Source: a virus
Lineage: Duplodnaviria; Caudoviricetes
DNA: 64,000 nucleotides
Virus record (IMG/VR): IMGVR_UViG_3300037484_000435
Location: 64,001-128,000 of that record
Reading direction: 5' to 3' (one strand)
The first letter of the stretch is position 1; each line of letters starts with the position of its first letter. The translations under genes were made by a program, and so were the position numbers. This document shows positions 11,732 through 29,711 of the stretch, in pieces. The notes under the pieces are model-generated. The model saw only the letters and a program-made list of their open reading frames with translations, did no database searches and was not told the DNA's origin.

Positions 11732-11816
11732 CTATCTGTTGGCGAGTCTGGTACGCCACTGGCTTTGGGAGCCAGCTTCCGCAAGGGAATCGCAGGTTCA
11801 AATCCTGCCAGATAGA
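11732..11816 (+). tRNA. tRNA-Pro(TGG) with long variable arm
   Basis: CTATCTG/CAGATAG, CTGGC-TTTGGGA-GCCAG, extra TTCC-GCAA-GGGA hairpin; followed by CAA. Confidence 0.85.
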
Positions 11817-11828
11817 CAAGACTCGAAT

Positions 11829-22221: not shown

Positions 22222-23670
22222 ATGGTCAGGATTGTAATTGATAATTACACCCGAATTTCGGGCTTGCCGAGGAACGTCTTCGAAGAAGTAAGAAAAAGAT
22301 TGACCTACCCAAATCCTAAGTATGAGGAAGCCCTGAAGCACAGAAAGCGAGGCCGTGTCTGGGGAGAGCCAGCAACTATCCGTTCGTGGGACTACGATAA
22401 AGAAGAACAGGAAATACTATTACCACGAGGAGTCTTTCTGGAATTCATGGATTACATAGGTCGCTTGGGATTAGAATTTGAATTAATTGATAGACGTCAG
22501 AAAACACACATAAAAGTTCCTAAACAATTACTAAAACTCAGGTCCTACCAAGAGAAGTTGGCTTACGAAGGCTCCCTGTACCCCGGTCCTGGTTATATGC
22601 TGCAGTCACCTCCTGGAACGGGAAAAACAATCATGGCCTTGGAGTTAGCTCGACGCGAAGAACGAAAAACACTATGGGTTGTAAACAAGAATCCGTTAGC
22701 TATGCAAGCTTTGCATGCGGCGTCAGATGAAGCTGAAGTGCAAGTACTTGGACTACCTAAAAAAGAAATAGGTCTGATAGGGGCTGGTACCAAGAAACCT
22801 CGAATTGGTGAATTCTTAACTATCGCCACTATTCAAACTATCAATAGTAAGAAGGAAGAGTTCGCTCGATACAAGTATGAGTTCGGAACAATAATAATAG
22901 ACGAAGCCCACCATGCCCCCGCCGCTACTTGGAAGTCTTGTGCTCATATGTTCGCACCTAAGCTGACTATTGGATTGACAGCAACGTCTTATCGAACAGA
23001 TGGGCTGACCCAAATGCTATTCGATTGTATTGGACCAGTGGTTTCTATTGCGGATAAGGAATTGTTAAAGGCTGAAGGTGTTCTAGTAGTCCCGACCTAT
23101 TGTAACCTATACACTAACCTCCGTTACTTTGGGAAGTCTTTCAACGATATAGTCTCTAAACTCATCAACGACCCGAGACGCAATCATATCTTACTAAATG
23201 TTATACAAGAAGTGCTATCAGAAAATGACACAAACGTAGTACTCTTGATGAGCGGACGAGTAAGCCACGTTGAAGATTTATCAATGATGTGCTATAACGC
23301 GGGCCTATCACCGATTAAGTTAATCGGGACACTCAGTAAATTAGAGCGGAATTTAGCATTCGAACAATTAAAAGCAGGACGTCCTCGTCTATTAGTTTCT
23401 ACATACGATTTGTTATCAGAAGGATTCGACTACCCACCTATTAGTCATGTTGTTTACGGCACACCGTTTAAAAATGAAATACGTTTAGAACAGACTGTTG
23501 GGAGGGCACAACGAACCGAACCATTAAAACAAGAAGCTTGGATAATAGACCTCAATGATGAAAACCGAATGCTATACAAACAAGCAAATTTTAGAAGAGC
23601 ATACGCTACAGGCTTAGGAATGCCTGTAGTTGTTTACAACTCAAACATATTTCGGAGAGAGTATAAATGA
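22222..23670 (+). CDS. superfamily 2 DExH helicase (UvsW/ResIII-like)
   Basis: LRSYQ, PPGTGKT (Walker A), IIDEAHH, TAT, EGFDYP, QTVGRAQR. Confidence 0.9.
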   Translation: MVRIVIDNYTRISGLPRNVFEEVRKRLTYPNPKYEEALKHRKRGRVWGEPATIRSWDYDKEEQEILLPRGVFLEFMDYIGRLGLEFELIDRRQKTHIKVPKQLLKLRSYQEKLAYEGSLYPGPGYMLQSPPGTGKTIMALELARREERKTLWVVNKNPLAMQALHAASDEAEVQVLGLPKKEIGLIGAGTKKPRIGEFLTIATIQTINSKKEEFARYKYEFGTIIIDEAHHAPAATWKSCAHMFAPKLTIGLTATSYRTDGLTQMLFDCIGPVVSIADKELLKAEGVLVVPTYCNLYTNLRYFGKSFNDIVSKLINDPRRNHILLNVIQEVLSENDTNVVLLMSGRVSHVEDLSMMCYNAGLSPIKLIGTLSKLERNLAFEQLKAGRPRLLVSTYDLLSEGFDYPPISHVVYGTPFKNEIRLEQTVGRAQRTEPLKQEAWIIDLNDENRMLYKQANFRRAYATGLGMPVVVYNSNIFRREYK

Positions 23671-24617
23671 TATCATCAAAAATTAACAGCTTCAAGCAAG
23701 CTCTGCGTAGCGATAATACATGTGAGCTTACGCGGGAAGCCAAAGAAGCTATCATCAGTCTACTCCCCGCCTTACGGCCTTTAACCTTACAGTGTCTTCC
23801 TGAGACATGTAATCGCCAAGACTTTGAAGACGCGGAAGCAGATGCAATCGCTAATGGCGTAAGATACGCCCAAATATCCCTGAAATCCAACATGGATAGC
23901 AGGAGGTGGAGTAAGACAGAGTGGAGACGTAGACTTTACAGCAGGTTCTTAGACGCTGTGTTGGAAAGTGCTAGGTATTTATTGTATCCTATGAACATTC
24001 CCCGCCCGCTTCGCTTTAGTCTAAAGAAATACTCAGAAGCAGTATCCATCATACGGAAATATGCACATGAAGAGCAGATACACAGCTCCCACTTGTACCA
24101 AGCATTTTTCTATCATGAATGCAACCTACACAAGGTAAATAAATGCAGGATATGTGAGCTGGGGCTATCAGAGTGCCCAATCCTAGACATGGAAGCATCT
24201 GATATGATAAAGATACATAAGCTGCTCTCTGGGGCAAGAAAGAGTTTGACTTACTATGGTAAACTTTATCGGAAGTCTTACAAAGACTGGGTAAGAATAC
24301 TAGAGTCAGTTAAATCTCTGGCCGCCAGCTCTCTCTTATCACCAGATAAGGAGGTATTTCCTGACATGGATAAATACCTAGTACTGAAGCAGCTCAAAGA
24401 GAAGATGGTTGGCATACATCCCGACCTATTTGAAATTTATTGCCATGCAATGTCAGATGTTGATGTCAACAATCTAAACGTAACCCATACTGTGCAGACT
24501 CCGCGCGGTTGGTTGAATAAAGATATTAAAGACCGCTTTGGAATCGAATCTACTGAGTTTCGCTGTCTTCTTGAAGAAGGGGACAAGCTATTAAATGAAT
24601 TTAGGTCATATGAAGGA
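23667..24617 (+). CDS. hypothetical protein; exon 1 (after splicing ends LPPIQRRFWAKSA-stop at 26901)
   Basis: ORF is interrupted at a codon boundary by GTGCG at 24618; the annotated tail VRREVSIMIP is intron sequence. Confidence 0.65.
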
Positions 24618-27600
24618 GTGCGACGAGAAGTTTCGATAATGATTCCGTAATGGTTATTGCATTAGAATGCTTTAACTTAAACGGCCATCAAACTGCTGGT
24701 GCGTGCCTAGGGAAGCATGCGTTTATACATCATGTGTATAGGGGTGTGAAGCCTTCCTAACAATGTACCGAAACCTGCTAGCATTTAAGTGGATTAGGGC
24801 TAGGCAAAAAAAAAGTAATATGGTTAACGAAAGTGAACTGCTGTTTAAATTCCGTCAATGACAACAAGCCAAACATGCTGATAGGCTTGAACCAAAAGGT
24901 AAATGGGTAAACATAAATTTTCCTTCTATTTATGTTGCAGTTAATACTCCCATCGGAAAAGAGGCAGAACCTAAGTTACTCAAATTTATCATTATTGGAA
25001 AACTCGGTAAACCTGTTGAGGGGTTAGTGTATATGCATTAACACACCTGAGAGCAATCGGAGGTTATCTCTCAGCAGGTAAAGGATGTAGTAAAAAGCGA
25101 ATGCCTGCTTGTAACGAGCAGGATAGTTGATTTAATGTTGGTGGCGAAGAGAGTTGCACCCTTTGGGGAAAGCAGGCACGCTAAAACGTGTTGAATCGCA
25201 CCATCTGAAAGGGTGGGGACGTGGGTTCGAATCCTACCCAACATTATCATTCAATACTACGAAAGTAGGCTGACTTACTACTGGTCTCTCACTGCAGGAG
25301 CTTCTTGCAGATAACAAACTTTTGGAGGTACGCATTATGAATATACACAATAGTGTAGATTTGGCAACTTCCAGCAAATTCTCGACGTGGAGTCCAATTG
25401 AATTGGAAGAAGTCGAGAAGTTTGTTAGGAAACTGCAAGTTGCAATTGCAGAAGCAACTAAAGCTAGAAAATGGCATGAGGTTAGAAAACTCCAGTTCAA
25501 GCTGGTCAATTCTTTCCGTGCAAAATTACTCGCGGTTAAAGTTGTAACATCAAACAAAGGTAAAAACACTCCAGGTGTTGATGGTCAAACTTGGAATAGT
25601 AAAGCAGAAAAGCTGAATGGTGCCATAAGTCTTACGGCAACTGGGTATAAACCCTCCCCGTTAAGACGAGTAGAAATTCCAAAAAGAAACGGGAAAACGA
25701 GACCCCTAGGAATTCCTACCATGCGAGATCGAGCAATGCAGTATCTCTATAAACTCGCTTTAGAACCTGTTGCTGAAATTTTGGCAGATAAGGATAGTTA
25801 TGGGTTTCGTCCCAAACGCAGTTGCCAAGATGCAATAGACCAATGCTTCATCGTGTTTAGCAAGAAGTGGTCTGCCCAATGGGTTCTAGAAGGTGACATA
25901 GAGAAATGCTTTGATAAGATTTCGCACGAATGGCTACTAAACAATGTAGTAATGGATAAAACTATTTTAGGTAAATGGCTGAAGGCAGGGTTTGTGTGGA
26001 ACGGAGAATTATTTCCTACTGACGAGGGTACACCTCAAGGTGGGATTATATCACCTATTCTAGCAAATCTTGCTTTAGACGGCATTGAAGCTGAGCTAAC
26101 GTCTAAATTTGGAAGAAAAAGTGTAAGAAGAGTATCTCTTAAATTAAACGTTGTAAGATACGCAGATGATTTCATAATCTCCTGTTCTGATAAAGATGTT
26201 CTGGAAAAGGAAGTGAAACCTTTACTGGACAAATTCCTAGAGCAAAGAGGTTTGAAATTATCTGAAGAGAAAACAAAGATTACTCACATTGATGATGGAT
26301 TCGACTTTCTTGGATTTAATATCCACAAATATAAAGGAAAGTTACTCATCAAACCCGCTAAGAAGTCTGTCATCAGATTTCTGAGAGAAGTGAAAGAAAT
26401 CTTTAACTCTAATAAAACAATGATTCAAGGGGATATGATTCTGTTACTTAATCTGAAAATAAGGGGGTGGTGTAATTACTATAGGCACGTTGTGTCTGGT
26501 GATGCATTCTCCTACGTAGGATTTAGACTCTGGCAAATGTGCTGGAGATGGAGTGTTCGTAGGCATCCTAATAAGAGTAAGACATGGGTCAAAGATAAGT
26601 ATTTTAAGTCTGTAAAAGGAAGTAATTGGAGATTTGCGGATTTTGAAACAGAGGACTACCTAATAGTTCCTGCTTCTATACCTATCGAAAGACACATAAA
26701 GATTTTAAAGGATGCAGAAGTATTTAACCCCTCGTGGAACAAATACTTTGAAGAAAGATAAAGTTTGATGTTATTGAGAGGCTTGAGCTGTATGCGGTGA
26801 AAGTCGCACGTACAGTTCTTAGGGGAGGGTGGGCTAGTAATAGTCTGCTCTTACCCGACCTTCCCCCAATTCAAAGAAGATTTTGGGCAAAATCTGCTTA
26901 GCCCGAAACCATCTGAGAAAATAATAGAATGGCAAAAGGCTGGTCTTCTAAAGCGGTATATCCAGCCATTAGATAAATGTGTAGGAGTATTACAAGATAC
27001 AAAGTTTCATGTTGACGATGTATTTCAACATTGCATAAAGACATGCGATAACGTGCCTCCCATCTTGAGTCTAAGGTGGGCAGGGCTGTTACATGATACA
27101 GGAAAGGTGCCAACACGAGGTCATCACATACTATGTGGTTTAACCTATCCAAAGGAAAAGAAGGTTGTTTCATATTGTCGACGTAAAAAGAAGAGATGTT
27201 CCGCCAAATGTGAACATGCTATTGAGCGAATAACATTCTACAAACACGAGCTGGCTAGTGAGAAACTAGCAAAGGCAGTGCTAAAGATGTTTAAGGTGGA
27301 CCCTCAAGTATATGCAGAGGCAATGGGCCTGATCGCGAACCATATGTATATGTATGTGCGACGAGCAAAGATTTGTGTAATGATTCCGTAGTGATACGGC
27401 CAGAGAACTGCCTCTGCGTACCTAACCAAGCATGCGTTATTACATCCTGTGTAGTAGGGTATGGAGCCTTGGTGACAATGTAATTTATACTACGAGCATC
27501 AATGTGGTATAGATGCTAGGTAAAGAGAAAGCATGGTTAACGCAAGTGAACTACTAATAAACCTCGTTAACATGAACAGGCTAAAGATGCTGAAAAGCCT

Positions 27601-29711
27601 GTACCAAAAAGGTAAATGGGTTGTCATGTATTTGTATATTGTACATGATGCAGTCTACACTCCCATCGGGGAACAGGTAGAACCTACACTTTCTCGTATT
27701 ATCTTATACAAATAACTCGGTAAGCCTAATGAGTTGCGGTCGCAAGAACCGCTAGCCCGTGAGTAATCTGGGGTGATTTACTCAGTAGGTAGAAGATGTA
27801 GTAAAAAGCGAATGCCCGTGTGTAATGCACAGGATAGTTATAAATTATAGCGGAGACGTAATGGAGTTCCTTGTGGAGACCGCCCTTCACGGCGGAGCAG
27901 TCGCAAGGTCACCCAGTATAAGATATAACCCTCGAAAGAGGGCAGACTTACTACCGGTCTCTCACTGCAGGAATATCTGCAGAAACTTTAAGGAGGATTA
28001 GTTATGATACACTGTGAAAACAGCGTTGCTGCCTCCAACAAATTTGATACGTGGAGTTCCATTAATTGGAAAGAAGTTGAAGAATTTGTTAGGAATATGC
28101 AGATAAAGATTGCAGATGCTGCTAAAAAGGAAAAATGGAGAGAGATAAATAGGTTGCAATATACCTTGACACATTCTTTCCGTGCTAAACTTTTAGCGGT
28201 AAGAATAGTTACATCTAGCACGGGCAACCGTACTGCTGGTGTAGATGGACAGATTTGGAAACATGATGAAACCAAATTATCGGAAGCAAGAAACCTTGAT
28301 AGGAAAACTTATAAACCTTCTCCACTTAAAAGGGTAATCATTCCCAAACCAAATGGTGGGGAACGTGCATTGGGTATTCCTACGATGAGGGATAGAGCGA
28401 TGCAATGTCTTTATAAGTTCGCACTGGAACCTGTTGCAGAAGTGTTTGCAGACCAGTGTTCTTACGGATTTAGAAAGCATAGGTGTTGTCAAGATGCACT
28501 AGAGCATATTGTCGGTATTTTCCAAGGTACAAAAGGAGCGGAGTGGGTTCTTGAAGGTGATATAGAAAAATGTTTTGATAAAATTTCTCACGAATGGTTG
28601 CTGTCCAATATTCAAATGGACAAAAATCTGTTGGAGAAATGGCTCAAAGCGGGATTCGTCTTTCAAGACACACTGTTTCTTACGGAAGAAGGAACTCCTC
28701 AAGGAGGAGTAATATCTCCTATTCTTGCAAACCTTGCCTTGGATGGCCTAGAGAAACTTTTAAAGGATAGGTTTCCTCGTCATCACGGTAAGAAAGTTAA
28801 TTTGGTTAGATATGCTGATGATTTCATCATATCAGGTGTTTCTAAAGAAGTAATGGAGAACGAAGTTAAACCTCTAGTTGAGGAATTTCTTTCTGTCAGA
28901 GGATTAAAACTATCCGACTCCAAGACATCAATAACTCATATTGATGATGGTTTTGATTTCCTAGGTTTTACAGTACGAAAGTTCAAGGGTAAACTGATTA
29001 CTAAACCTAGCAAGAAATCAATAAAGAAATTCTTAAAGACAATCAAAGAGTTTCTTACTGATCATCGAACCAGCAAACAAACAGATATAATTATTCCACT
29101 CAATAAGAAAATTTCTGGCTGGAGTAACTACTTCAAGCATTGTAGTGCGAAGGTAACATTTAGTTACATCGATTTCCGCATTTGGAAAATGATTTGGCAA
29201 TGGTGCAAAAGAAGGCACCCCAATAAAAACAATAATTGGGTTAAAGCCAAATACTTCATTACGTTTAAAGGGCGTGATTGGCGTTTTAGTGCGGATGAAC
29301 ACTATCTCACTATCGCCGCGTCGTTCCCAATTACGCGATGGATAAAACTTCGTAAAGATGCTGAAGTATTTAACCCTGCTTGGGATGAGTATTTTGAATT
29401 AAGAGAGGCTTGAGCCGTGTGCGGGGAAACTCGCACGCACGGTTCTTAGGGGGCGGGGGTTATGTAAGTAACTCCTGCTACCCGATGATTGTAGTTGGAC
29501 CGATAAAGCACTAACTAGGTTTGTAAGAAAGTCTGGAATTAAAGCCAGCGATCTGGAAAATCCTGATGAATTTCCTCTGTTTCAATTGAGGATAGCGGAT
29601 AGAATAAGCCGAGGCTTGGAACCAGTAACTACCAAACAACGAGATTTTGAAAATAGACTCAGAGGATACTTTAATCCCAATAAACAAGAGGAAATAATAT
29701 GCCAAAAATAA
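24610..29711 (+). CDS. HD-domain phosphohydrolase split by two group II introns (exons 24610-24617, 26860-27355, 29487-29711; 242 aa)
   Basis: spliced frame MKD|FPQF...FHVDDVFQHC...WAGLLHDTGK...HMYMY|DCSWTDKALTRF...LRIADR; resembles the HD domain of CCA-adding enzymes. Confidence 0.8.
24618..26859 (+). mobile_element. group IIB intron 1
   Basis: 5' GTGCG; DV GAGCTGTATGCGGTGAAAGTCGCACGTACAGTTC; 3' CCCGAC; EBS1 TCCTTC (24921-24926) complements exon end GAAGGA; EBS2 ATGAC complements GTCAT. Confidence 0.92.
25322..26761 (+). CDS. ltrA: group II intron reverse transcriptase/maturase (no En domain)
   Basis: RPLGIPT..DRAMQ, GTPQGGIISPILAN, RYADDF, GFDFLGF; ends after the maturase domain; ATG at 25337 is a likely start. 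Confidence 0.93.
   Translation: MEVRIMNIHNSVDLATSSKFSTWSPIELEEVEKFVRKLQVAIAEATKARKWHEVRKLQFKLVNSFRAKLLAVKVVTSNKGKNTPGVDGQTWNSKAEKLNGAISLTATGYKPSPLRRVEIPKRNGKTRPLGIPTMRDRAMQYLYKLALEPVAEILADKDSYGFRPKRSCQDAIDQCFIVFSKKWSAQWVLEGDIEKCFDKISHEWLLNNVVMDKTILGKWLKAGFVWNGELFPTDEGTPQGGIISPILANLALDGIEAELTSKFGRKSVRRVSLKLNVVRYADDFIISCSDKDVLEKEVKPLLDKFLEQRGLKLSEEKTKITHIDDGFDFLGFNIHKYKGKLLIKPAKKSVIRFLREVKEIFNSNKTMIQGDMILLLNLKIRGWCNYYRHVVSGDAFSYVGFRLWQMCWRWSVRRHPNKSKTWVKDKYFKSVKGSNWRFADFETEDYLIVPASIPIERHIKILKDAEVFNPSWNKYFEER
27356..29486 (+). mobile_element. group IIB intron 2
   Basis: 5' GTGCG; DV GAGCCGTGTGCGGGGAAACTCGCACGCACGGTTC; 3' CCCGAT; EBS1 GTATAT in the TCATGTA/TACATGA loop complements exon end ATGTAT. 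Confidence 0.92.
28004..29413 (+). CDS. ltrA: group II intron reverse transcriptase/maturase (no En domain)
   Basis: same RT motifs including RYADDF; clear paralog of 25322-26761; stop codon overlaps the start of DV. Confidence 0.93.
   Translation: MIHCENSVAASNKFDTWSSINWKEVEEFVRNMQIKIADAAKKEKWREINRLQYTLTHSFRAKLLAVRIVTSSTGNRTAGVDGQIWKHDETKLSEARNLDRKTYKPSPLKRVIIPKPNGGERALGIPTMRDRAMQCLYKFALEPVAEVFADQCSYGFRKHRCCQDALEHIVGIFQGTKGAEWVLEGDIEKCFDKISHEWLLSNIQMDKNLLEKWLKAGFVFQDTLFLTEEGTPQGGVISPILANLALDGLEKLLKDRFPRHHGKKVNLVRYADDFIISGVSKEVMENEVKPLVEEFLSVRGLKLSDSKTSITHIDDGFDFLGFTVRKFKGKLITKPSKKSIKKFLKTIKEFLTDHRTSKQTDIIIPLNKKISGWSNYFKHCSAKVTFSYIDFRIWKMIWQWCKRRHPNKNNNWVKAKYFITFKGRDWRFSADEHYLTIAASFPITRWIKLRKDAEVFNPAWDEYFELREA

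Follow-up and report, generated by a model that had tools for sequence, protein, structure and literature searches.

A tRNA-shaped element on the outer end of domain III in a group II intron of a huge phage

Group II introns serve as a model for the origin of spliceosomal introns, as gene-targeting tools, and as scaffolds for cryo-EM. In the huge-phage genome considered here (545,322 bp), in which ARAGORN called 40 tRNA genes, one such intron carries within its ribozyme body a structure that resembles a tRNA. This raises the question of whether the resemblance is genuine, which part of the intron accommodates it, whether related introns share it, and what it might do. The window analyzed is a stretch of 64,000 nucleotides corresponding to bases 64001-128000 of the source record, and the only two group II introns of the whole phage genome are found in the same region of this window (see the table below).

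Intron 1 is delineated by its terminal sequences and by matches to two Rfam families. Its EBS1 motif (UCCUUC) pairs with an IBS1 motif (GAAGGA) formed by the final six bases of the exon and, based on this pairing, the intron looks functional. The domain IV stem, which starts immediately 3' of domain III and whose 3' strand ends immediately before D5, encloses an intact ORF encoding a reverse transcriptase/maturase devoid of an endonuclease domain and preceded by a GGAGG ribosome-binding site. The maturase ORF of the paralogous intron 2 is also intact and, by Pfam, lacks an endonuclease domain. The gene interrupted by intron 1 has a first exon with no recognizable family and a second exon with an HD domain only; no tRNA-related function of this gene that could be linked to the element was found.

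Coordinates of the features of introns 1 and 2 in the window, and content of hairpin D3b in related introns
Feature	Position	Strand	Description	Basis
Group II intron 1	24618-26859	+	5' end GUGCGAC; 3' end ...CCCGAC	Rfam and sequence reading
IBS1, intron 1	24612-24617		GAAGGA	
RF02012 match (D1), intron 1	24685-24800			Rfam
EBS1, intron 1	24921-24926		UCCUUC	
Domain II, intron 1	25011-25079	+	basal stem ACCUG/CAGGU and two small hairpins	covarying basal stem
J2/3 linker, intron 1	25080-25086	+	AAAGGAU; bears gamma nucleotide	
Domain III, intron 1	25087-25281	+	basal stem GUAGUAA/UUACUAC	folds and compensatory changes
Domain III hairpin a	25104-25122	+		
Domain III hairpin b (D3b)	25126-25255	+		
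tRNA-like module at D3b tip	25134-25245	+		RF00005 match; cloverleaf MFE fold
Acceptor-like stem	25134-25141 / 25238-25245	+	8 bp, AAUGUUGG / CCAACAUU	
UG after acceptor 5' strand	25142-25143	+		
D-like stem	25144-25147 / 25196-25199	+	GCGA / UCGC	
Insert between D-stem strands	hairpins 25154-25175 and 25176-25191	+	48 nt; hairpins predicted	
A between D-like stem and capped hairpin	25200	+		
Hairpin in anticodon-arm position	25201-25216	+	CCAUCU-GAAA-GGGUGG, 6 bp, GAAA-capped	
Variable GGAC	25217-25220	+		
T arm	25221-25237	+	GUGGG-UUCGAAU-CCUAC	
Domain III hairpin c (D3c)	25257-25268	+	CUAC-GAAA-GUAG	
Domain IV stem	25283-25291 (5' strand) / 26775-26783 (3' strand)	+	GGUCUCUCA / UGAGAGGCU	sequence reading
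Ribosome-binding site, intron 1 maturase	25324-25328		GGAGG	
Intron 1 reverse transcriptase/maturase	25337-26761	+	474 aa	Pfam RVT_N, RVT_1, GIIM
RF00029 match (D5-D6), intron 1	26783-26859			Rfam
Paralogous group II intron 2	27356-29486	+	5' end GUGCGAC	RF02012 D1 match, RF00029 D5-D6 match
Domain III, intron 2	27798-27954			
Intron 2 maturase ORF	28004-29413			Pfam
D3b of intron 1			129 nt; tRNA-like module	
D3b of intron 2			91 nt; unrelated sequence	
D3b of L092, L095, L096, L106			12-13 nt; without insert	
D3b of L002			182 nt; 39-aa ORF behind strong ribosome-binding site	
D3b of L093			220 nt; 59-aa ORF, no known family	
L098, exactly at D3b loop			246-nt insert; 83-aa ORF, no known family	
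D3b tip of L107	L107:42-144		103-nt insert; acceptor/T-arm upper half	

All the tRNA-like parts described for intron 1 in the initial annotation were found where it had placed them, the insert between the D-stem strands measuring 48 nt. The 8-bp acceptor-like stem is combined with a 5-bp T stem and a UUCGAAU loop, the 3' strands of the two stems being contiguous, and the junction spacing (2, 1, 4, and 0 nt) is tRNA-like. Alignment to the Rfam tRNA model RF00005 correctly placed U8, G10, C11, A14, G15, A21, A26, C48, G53, the UUCGAAU loop, and C61, and thus the G15/C48 and G53-C61 pairs. This match (25135-25245) reached 32.4 bits, above the family's gathering score of 29, and the claim of a genuine tRNA-like fold within intron 1 was supported. 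Its E-value of 5.4e-4 was obtained in a sensitive search of a 5-kb segment (24600-29600) against all 4227 families; a default Rfam run on the whole window, which relies on fast filters, missed the match. The minimum free energy fold of the element is a cloverleaf, both alone and within domain III.

Resemblance to a tRNA might arise by chance, and the folding z-score of the whole element, which is only -1.15, would be compatible with such an accident. However, besides the Rfam score exceeding the cut-off, a strict scan for a T arm with an adjoining 7-bp acceptor, designed as an empirical control for false positives, returned no match on the entire minus strand of the 545-kb genome and, across related loci totaling 1.03 Mb, nothing but genuine tRNAs and a single homologous element. 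In the absence of false positives in these controls, the match is far beyond chance expectation and, with a second copy at the homologous site of a related intron (see below), an accidental origin is extremely improbable. A working tRNA gene residing in the intron is hardly credible either, even if the covariance-model alignment contains a 7-nt loop, CUGAAAG, from which an anticodon GAA could be read. The anticodon arm lacks one base and adopts the form of a GAAA-capped hairpin of 6 bp, with a UGAAAG loop region of 6 nt, which is not the 5-bp stem and 7-nt loop of a decoding tRNA. Nor is the D loop tRNA-like, with 48 nt inserted at the elbow and no clear GG doublet (G18 G19). ARAGORN made no tRNA call on the element, the phage already possesses a tRNA-Phe(GAA), and in the second copy the place of the anticodon arm is taken by a three-way junction.

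The T stem is poorly supported by thermodynamics: in nearest-neighbor ensembles, its predicted probability is 0.15 in intron 1 and 0.03 in the second copy, whereas 32 genuine tRNAs of this phage reach a median of 0.96. An alternative 8-bp pairing inside the element, CACCCUUU/AAAGGGUG, competes with the T-arm fold. Since no sigma-70-type promoter or terminator motif was found next to the element on the + strand, it is most simply regarded as transcribed with the intron, and an independent transcription unit was rejected on the same ground. From the 3' end of the element, the maturase ATG is 91 nt downstream and an in-frame TTG that precedes this ATG is 76 nt downstream; the initial annotation gave about 80 nt.

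To which domain of the ribozyme the element belongs was addressed by comparing introns 1 and 2 with relatives obtained through their maturase homologues. Among these, the basal stem of domain II covaries (CCUG/CAGG, CCUA/UAGG, CUCG/CGAG, and CCCA/UGGG). In the 7-nt linker that follows, the fifth base is G in four introns ending in C and A in three ending in U, a covariation (7/7) that represents the known gamma-gamma' pair joining J2/3 to the final base of the intron. This identifies the linker as J2/3 and, thus, the next domain as domain III, whose basal stem, hairpin a, and hairpin c all exhibit compensatory changes across the 7 introns. MAFFT/RNAalifold analysis of whole domain III sequences recovered hairpin a alone because the inserts break the alignment, so that a script was used to tabulate the remaining stems. 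Taken together, the compensatory changes in the stems of both domains and the covariation of J2/3 with the last base in all seven introns refute the initial placement in domain II: the element lies 3' of J2/3 and, as delineated by these covarying stems, makes up the distal part (tip) of D3b, as the middle one of the three domain III hairpins is called here.

The endonuclease-less maturases, at 58-73% identity, group in a well-supported clade that is separate from the HNH-bearing bacterial maturases, and at least some of them come from very large phage contigs. Within this clade, hairpin D3b is only 12-13 nt in four introns and carries larger inserts in six, three of which contain small ORFs. 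The ORF of L002 has a weak similarity to DNA polymerase A (E 9e-4) that falls under the Pfam cut-off. L098 is informative, as it and L096, an intron devoid of an insert at this place, have nearly identical maturases. In intron 2, as initially noted, the corresponding place is occupied by an unrelated insert of about 80-90 nt in which the tRNA-like fold is absent. All of this cargo is in the sense orientation, and the relatives that lack the module appear intact. Across the wider class, domain III and the maturase begin mostly 129-190 nt apart, which points to a compact domain III. Based on these comparisons, D3b is a peripheral cargo site in this phage-borne clade of endonuclease-less introns. 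A precedent exists in the fungal rnl-489 and rns-952 introns, in which domain III hosts LAGLIDADG ORFs (PMC13190283).

Whether the module is a routine feature of the intron class could be answered in the negative: under strict or relaxed criteria, its signature was found in none of about 95 other related introns. The exception is a close relative, L107, a 1.8-kb contig from another sample, sequencing run SRR33452761, that encodes a maturase sharing 70% identity with the intron 1 enzyme. Its insert has an 8-bp acceptor stem, GACGUGGG/CUCACGUC, followed by UG, and its T arm, GAUG[U]G-UUCGAAU-CCAUC, consists of 5 bp with one bulged base. As in intron 1, the acceptor 3' strand directly follows the T 3' strand. 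When the two copies are compared, the acceptor stems differ by three double compensatory changes and one single change, and the T stems by two double compensatory changes, while both copies have the same T loop and the same UG next to the acceptor. MAFFT aligned the acceptor and T strands of the two inserts in register, and their global alignment scored about six standard deviations over shuffled sequences, a figure that includes the shared domain III flanks. The remainder of the inserts has diverged almost beyond alignment, and the lower halves differ, with an 8-bp D-like hairpin and a three-way junction in L107 where intron 1 has its GAAA-capped hairpin. RF00005 was not detected on the L107 element at E<=10.

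The module is known in two copies. No further ones were found in IMG/VR with patterns built on domain III anchors or on the T loop plus hairpin D3c, GenBank phages yielded only an 85-nt match to D1, and a single-sequence search of viral contigs with the maturase gave no match. A second contig with the same maturase as intron 1, L099, is 100% identical and thus adds no variation. Absent from about 95 relatives and present in L107 with its upper half conserved, the module is neither routine nor a one-off. Such a covarying second copy argues for selection on the acceptor/T-arm half, and the maintenance of this half through compensating changes suggests that the module in intron 1 is probably functional.

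The origin of the module was first proposed to be a captured tRNA fragment, a view that the searches for a donor did not bear out. Elsewhere in the genome, the sole similarity is a T-arm identity of 18 nt with the phage's own tRNA-Asn. No donor was detected in viral contigs by an exact 28-mer or in 185,579 species genomes by a 21-mer, and a gapped acceptor/T-loop pattern run on the same 185,579 genomes produced only four chance matches, none of them a tRNA. Group II reverse transcriptases are able to switch templates end to end, and the uniform sense orientation of the D3b cargo would fit a capture at the RNA level, for instance through such template switching by the intron reverse transcriptase; we infer this route from orientation. 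The module might then be a neutral passenger, a tRNA or tRNA-like RNA copied into the exposed D3b loop, for example across a nick, and merely tolerated there, following either one old capture or two separate ones. The unrelated sense cargo of other D3b tips (the ORFs of L002, L093, and L098), the fast turnover illustrated by the 246-nt difference between L096 and L098, the T-arm identity with tRNA-Asn, and the template-switching ability of these enzymes would all be in keeping with a passenger. This explanation is nevertheless weakened by the five double compensatory changes that keep the acceptor and T stems paired amid divergence in the rest of the insert, and is further at odds with the 8-bp acceptor, UG, and similar D3b flanks common to both copies, with the lack of a donor tRNA in the phage or the 185,579 species genomes, and with the remodeling of both lower halves, which is unexpected for recent captures. 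We regard it as unlikely.

The conserved portion corresponds, by prediction, to a tRNA upper half in which 8 bp of acceptor stem stack on 5 bp of T stem, with the canonical UUCGAAU loop and U8. This is the part of a tRNA read by RNase P, RNase Z, and CCA-adding enzymes; RNase P recognizes the acceptor/T-arm helix and cleaves many tRNA-like substrates that are not tRNAs. Selection seems to have acted on the enzyme-read part, since the lower half was rebuilt differently while the geometry of the upper half was kept. Our preferred interpretation, put forward tentatively and with somewhat less than even confidence, is that of a selected mimic of the tRNA upper half that would be recognized or cut by tRNA-processing enzymes such as RNase P. 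The host RNase P would cleave where the acceptor stem starts on its 5' side (about 25133-25135), and a nuclease acting on tRNA 3' ends would cut near 25245. The intron RNA would thereby be interrupted in a loop that tolerates a break, yielding a free tRNA-like molecule about 110 nt long and, downstream, a fragment coding for the maturase, whose defined 5' end would lie some 90 nt ahead of the maturase start codon. Ll.LtrB still splices in vivo when its domain III is broken in the loop, and a natural split within this domain occurs in the plastid rps12 intron (PMC1874635).

In favor of such processing are the occurrence of the same module, with compensatory pairs, at the same D3b tip in L107, and the variable nature of this tip, which ranges from 12-13 nt to a 246-nt insert. 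Against it are the existence of only two instances, one of them from a 1.8-kb contig with no RF00005 match, the low ensemble probability of the T stem together with its competing pairing, and the apparently intact state of relatives lacking the module. The base at position -1 of the element is paired with position 73 and no CCA is encoded, two features that slow bacterial RNase P; an RNase P RNA of the phage's own was not found. Moreover, selection on the intron need not favor cleavage, as cutting would destroy the retrohoming template.

A bolder extension, of which we are rather doubtful, regards the domain III tip of phage-borne group II introns as a cargo bay. The cargo of one lineage would be a tRNA-shaped RNA gene punched out by host tRNA-processing enzymes, or else the module, once cleaved and supplied with CCA, would become a tRNA-like 3' tag on the 5' part of the intron. 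Tags of this kind are recognized by the reverse transcriptases of retroplasmids. If true, the intron would offer a bacterial or phage counterpart of intron-hosted small RNAs and tRNA punctuation.

The conserved upper half might also serve uncut, as an architectural or docking module in which the T loop and a rigid 13-bp helix provide a tertiary element, or a handle for a tRNA-binding partner such as the ribosome, an elongation factor, a CCA-adding enzyme, or the maturase, and thereby, without being cleaved, help the intron RNA to fold, remain stable, or be protected. T-loop motifs act as tertiary elements in RNase P RNA, rRNA, and T-boxes. Both helix length and T loop are conserved in the two introns, the module extends the D3b helix and has no long single strands on either side, an uncut module would be harmless to retromobility, and the phage encodes a PolyA_pol/CCA-type enzyme at genome positions 480894-481271. 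Ribosome association is reported to protect a group II intron RNA (PMC3851717). Conversely, a conserved partner sequence was not found, the two copies diverge in the D-like and anticodon-like parts needed to complete a tRNA elbow, and four members of the clade have no insert whatsoever. In addition, the only canonical GAAA receptor of intron 1 (24819/24970) sits where the standard contact with D5 is expected. A docking role is thus possible, though on the unlikely side.

Whichever role it fulfills, the module has kin of two known kinds: tRNA-like elements that act as processing signals or mimics, and group II introns that bear cargo. Among the former are the t-elements of plant mitochondria (PMC1920247) and the mascRNA-type element of MALAT1. 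These are likewise non-decoding tRNA-shaped folds within a longer transcript, with an intact acceptor/T-arm helix readable by RNase P and RNase Z. Their cutting defines the ends of neighboring RNAs and they occupy untranslated or intergenic parts of organellar or nuclear transcripts, whereas cleavage of the phage element is putative and the element resides inside the body of a group II ribozyme. It further differs from them in continuing a ribozyme helix, in its 48-nt D-loop insert, and in its capped anticodon arm. With the fungal rnl-489 and rns-952 introns (PMC13190283), the phage clade shares a domain III that takes large inserts while the catalytic core is kept, and D3b tips of relatives similarly carry ORF-bearing inserts. 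In contrast to these introns, the cargo of intron 1 is a structured non-coding tRNA mimic instead of a homing endonuclease gene, and its host is a phage intron that retains its own reverse transcriptase in domain IV.

Upper-half mimics are also known from retroelements and RNA viruses, as illustrated by the 3'-terminal tRNA-like structures ending in CCA of the Mauriceville retroplasmid and TYMV, where they are found on the replicating RNA and the polymerase is related to group II reverse transcriptases. The intron element is instead internal, about 1.6 kb short of the 3' terminus of the intron, and cleavage would be needed to make it terminal. The literature searched contained no report of a tRNA-like fold inside a domain of a group II intron, which is not proof of absence. 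If a selected mimic in domain III is confirmed, this would reveal a tolerated and evolvable insertion site, link the fate of an intron RNA with the tRNA-processing machinery, and indicate that huge phages, rich in tRNAs, put tRNA mimics inside mobile ribozymes.

Y RNAs of the YrlA type also are non-decoding tRNA mimics with a canonical T arm. Their topology is opposite, YrlA being open at the anticodon end and the intron element at the acceptor end, and no match to the Rfam YrlA family (RF02553) was obtained in 24600-29600 at E<=10. Elsewhere in the phage genome, three other candidates with an acceptor and a T arm were set aside: those at genome positions 1166-1280 and 516225-516396 are not recognized as tRNA by Rfam, and the third, at 66046-66259, lies within a Y RNA region.

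The position of intron 1, a group II intron, can be read from the frames on either side of it. With the intron end at 26859, the long frame of exon 1 meets a stop after only 14 more codons, and an ATG close to the exon's 3' end is joined to the HD-domain frame instead. On these reading frames, the intron is placed 8 nt past the putative start codon, at a point where two genes overlap. A helix in domain I (D1) of the same intron has the canonical 11-nt GAAA tetraloop receptor UAUGG/CCUAAG, which is probably the standard docking site for the domain V tetraloop; in the paralogous intron 2, the equivalent site reads CAUGG/CCUACA, a variant of this receptor.

Within the tRNA-like element carried by the middle hairpin of domain III (D3b) of intron 1, a perfect pairing is possible between CACCCUUU and AAAGGGUG, and is predicted to compete with both the GAAA hairpin and the first D-loop hairpin. 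This pairing, which is not conserved in the second copy of the tRNA-like upper half at locus L107, could represent a switch or an artefact of structure prediction. The D3b inserts of three related introns were found to hold small sense-strand ORFs of 39, 59 and 83 aa. The shortest is preceded by a strong ribosome-binding site and weakly resembles a segment of DNA polymerase A, and neither of the other two matched any Pfam family.

Coordinates of intron, tRNA and associated features (window positions unless marked genome or given by locus)
Feature	Position	Remark
Exon 1 long frame	23667-24617	
ATG of HD-domain frame	24610	24610-24617 joined to 26860 onward
GAAA receptor, intron 1	24819-24823 with 24970-24975	
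Competing pairing	25157-25164 with 25208-25215	
39-aa ORF	L002:2779-2898	sense
59-aa ORF	L093:2727-2906	sense
83-aa ORF	L098:223-474	sense
Long-variable-arm tRNAs	4730-4819; 4829-4915; 11732-11817	
Long-variable-arm tRNAs	genome 37565-37651; 538785-538968; 516029-516111	
CUA tRNA	genome 47126-47202	outside window; Rfam, 63.6 bits
T-arm stretch	genome 1166-1280	outside window; 115 nt
T-arm stretch	genome 516225-516396	outside window; 172 nt
Poly(A) polymerase/CCA-adding family protein	genome 480894-481271	outside window; minus strand; 531 aa

Several phage tRNAs are themselves of unusual form, those for His, Trp, Pro, Gly, Arg and Gln having long variable arms and a length of 83-91 nt. In bacteria, this shape is normally confined to Leu, Ser and Tyr tRNAs. 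The phage also has a tRNA with the anticodon CUA, which reads TAG; stop codons may thus be suppressed or recoded in some phage genes.

In two further stretches, a canonical T arm leads straight into a strand that forms pairs with a 7-nt acceptor strand lying upstream. Neither was recognised as a tRNA by Rfam, and both may be additional tRNA mimics of the phage. As for processing enzymes, no bacterial RNase P RNA was found in the phage genome, and one phage-encoded protein belongs to the poly(A) polymerase/CCA-adding family.
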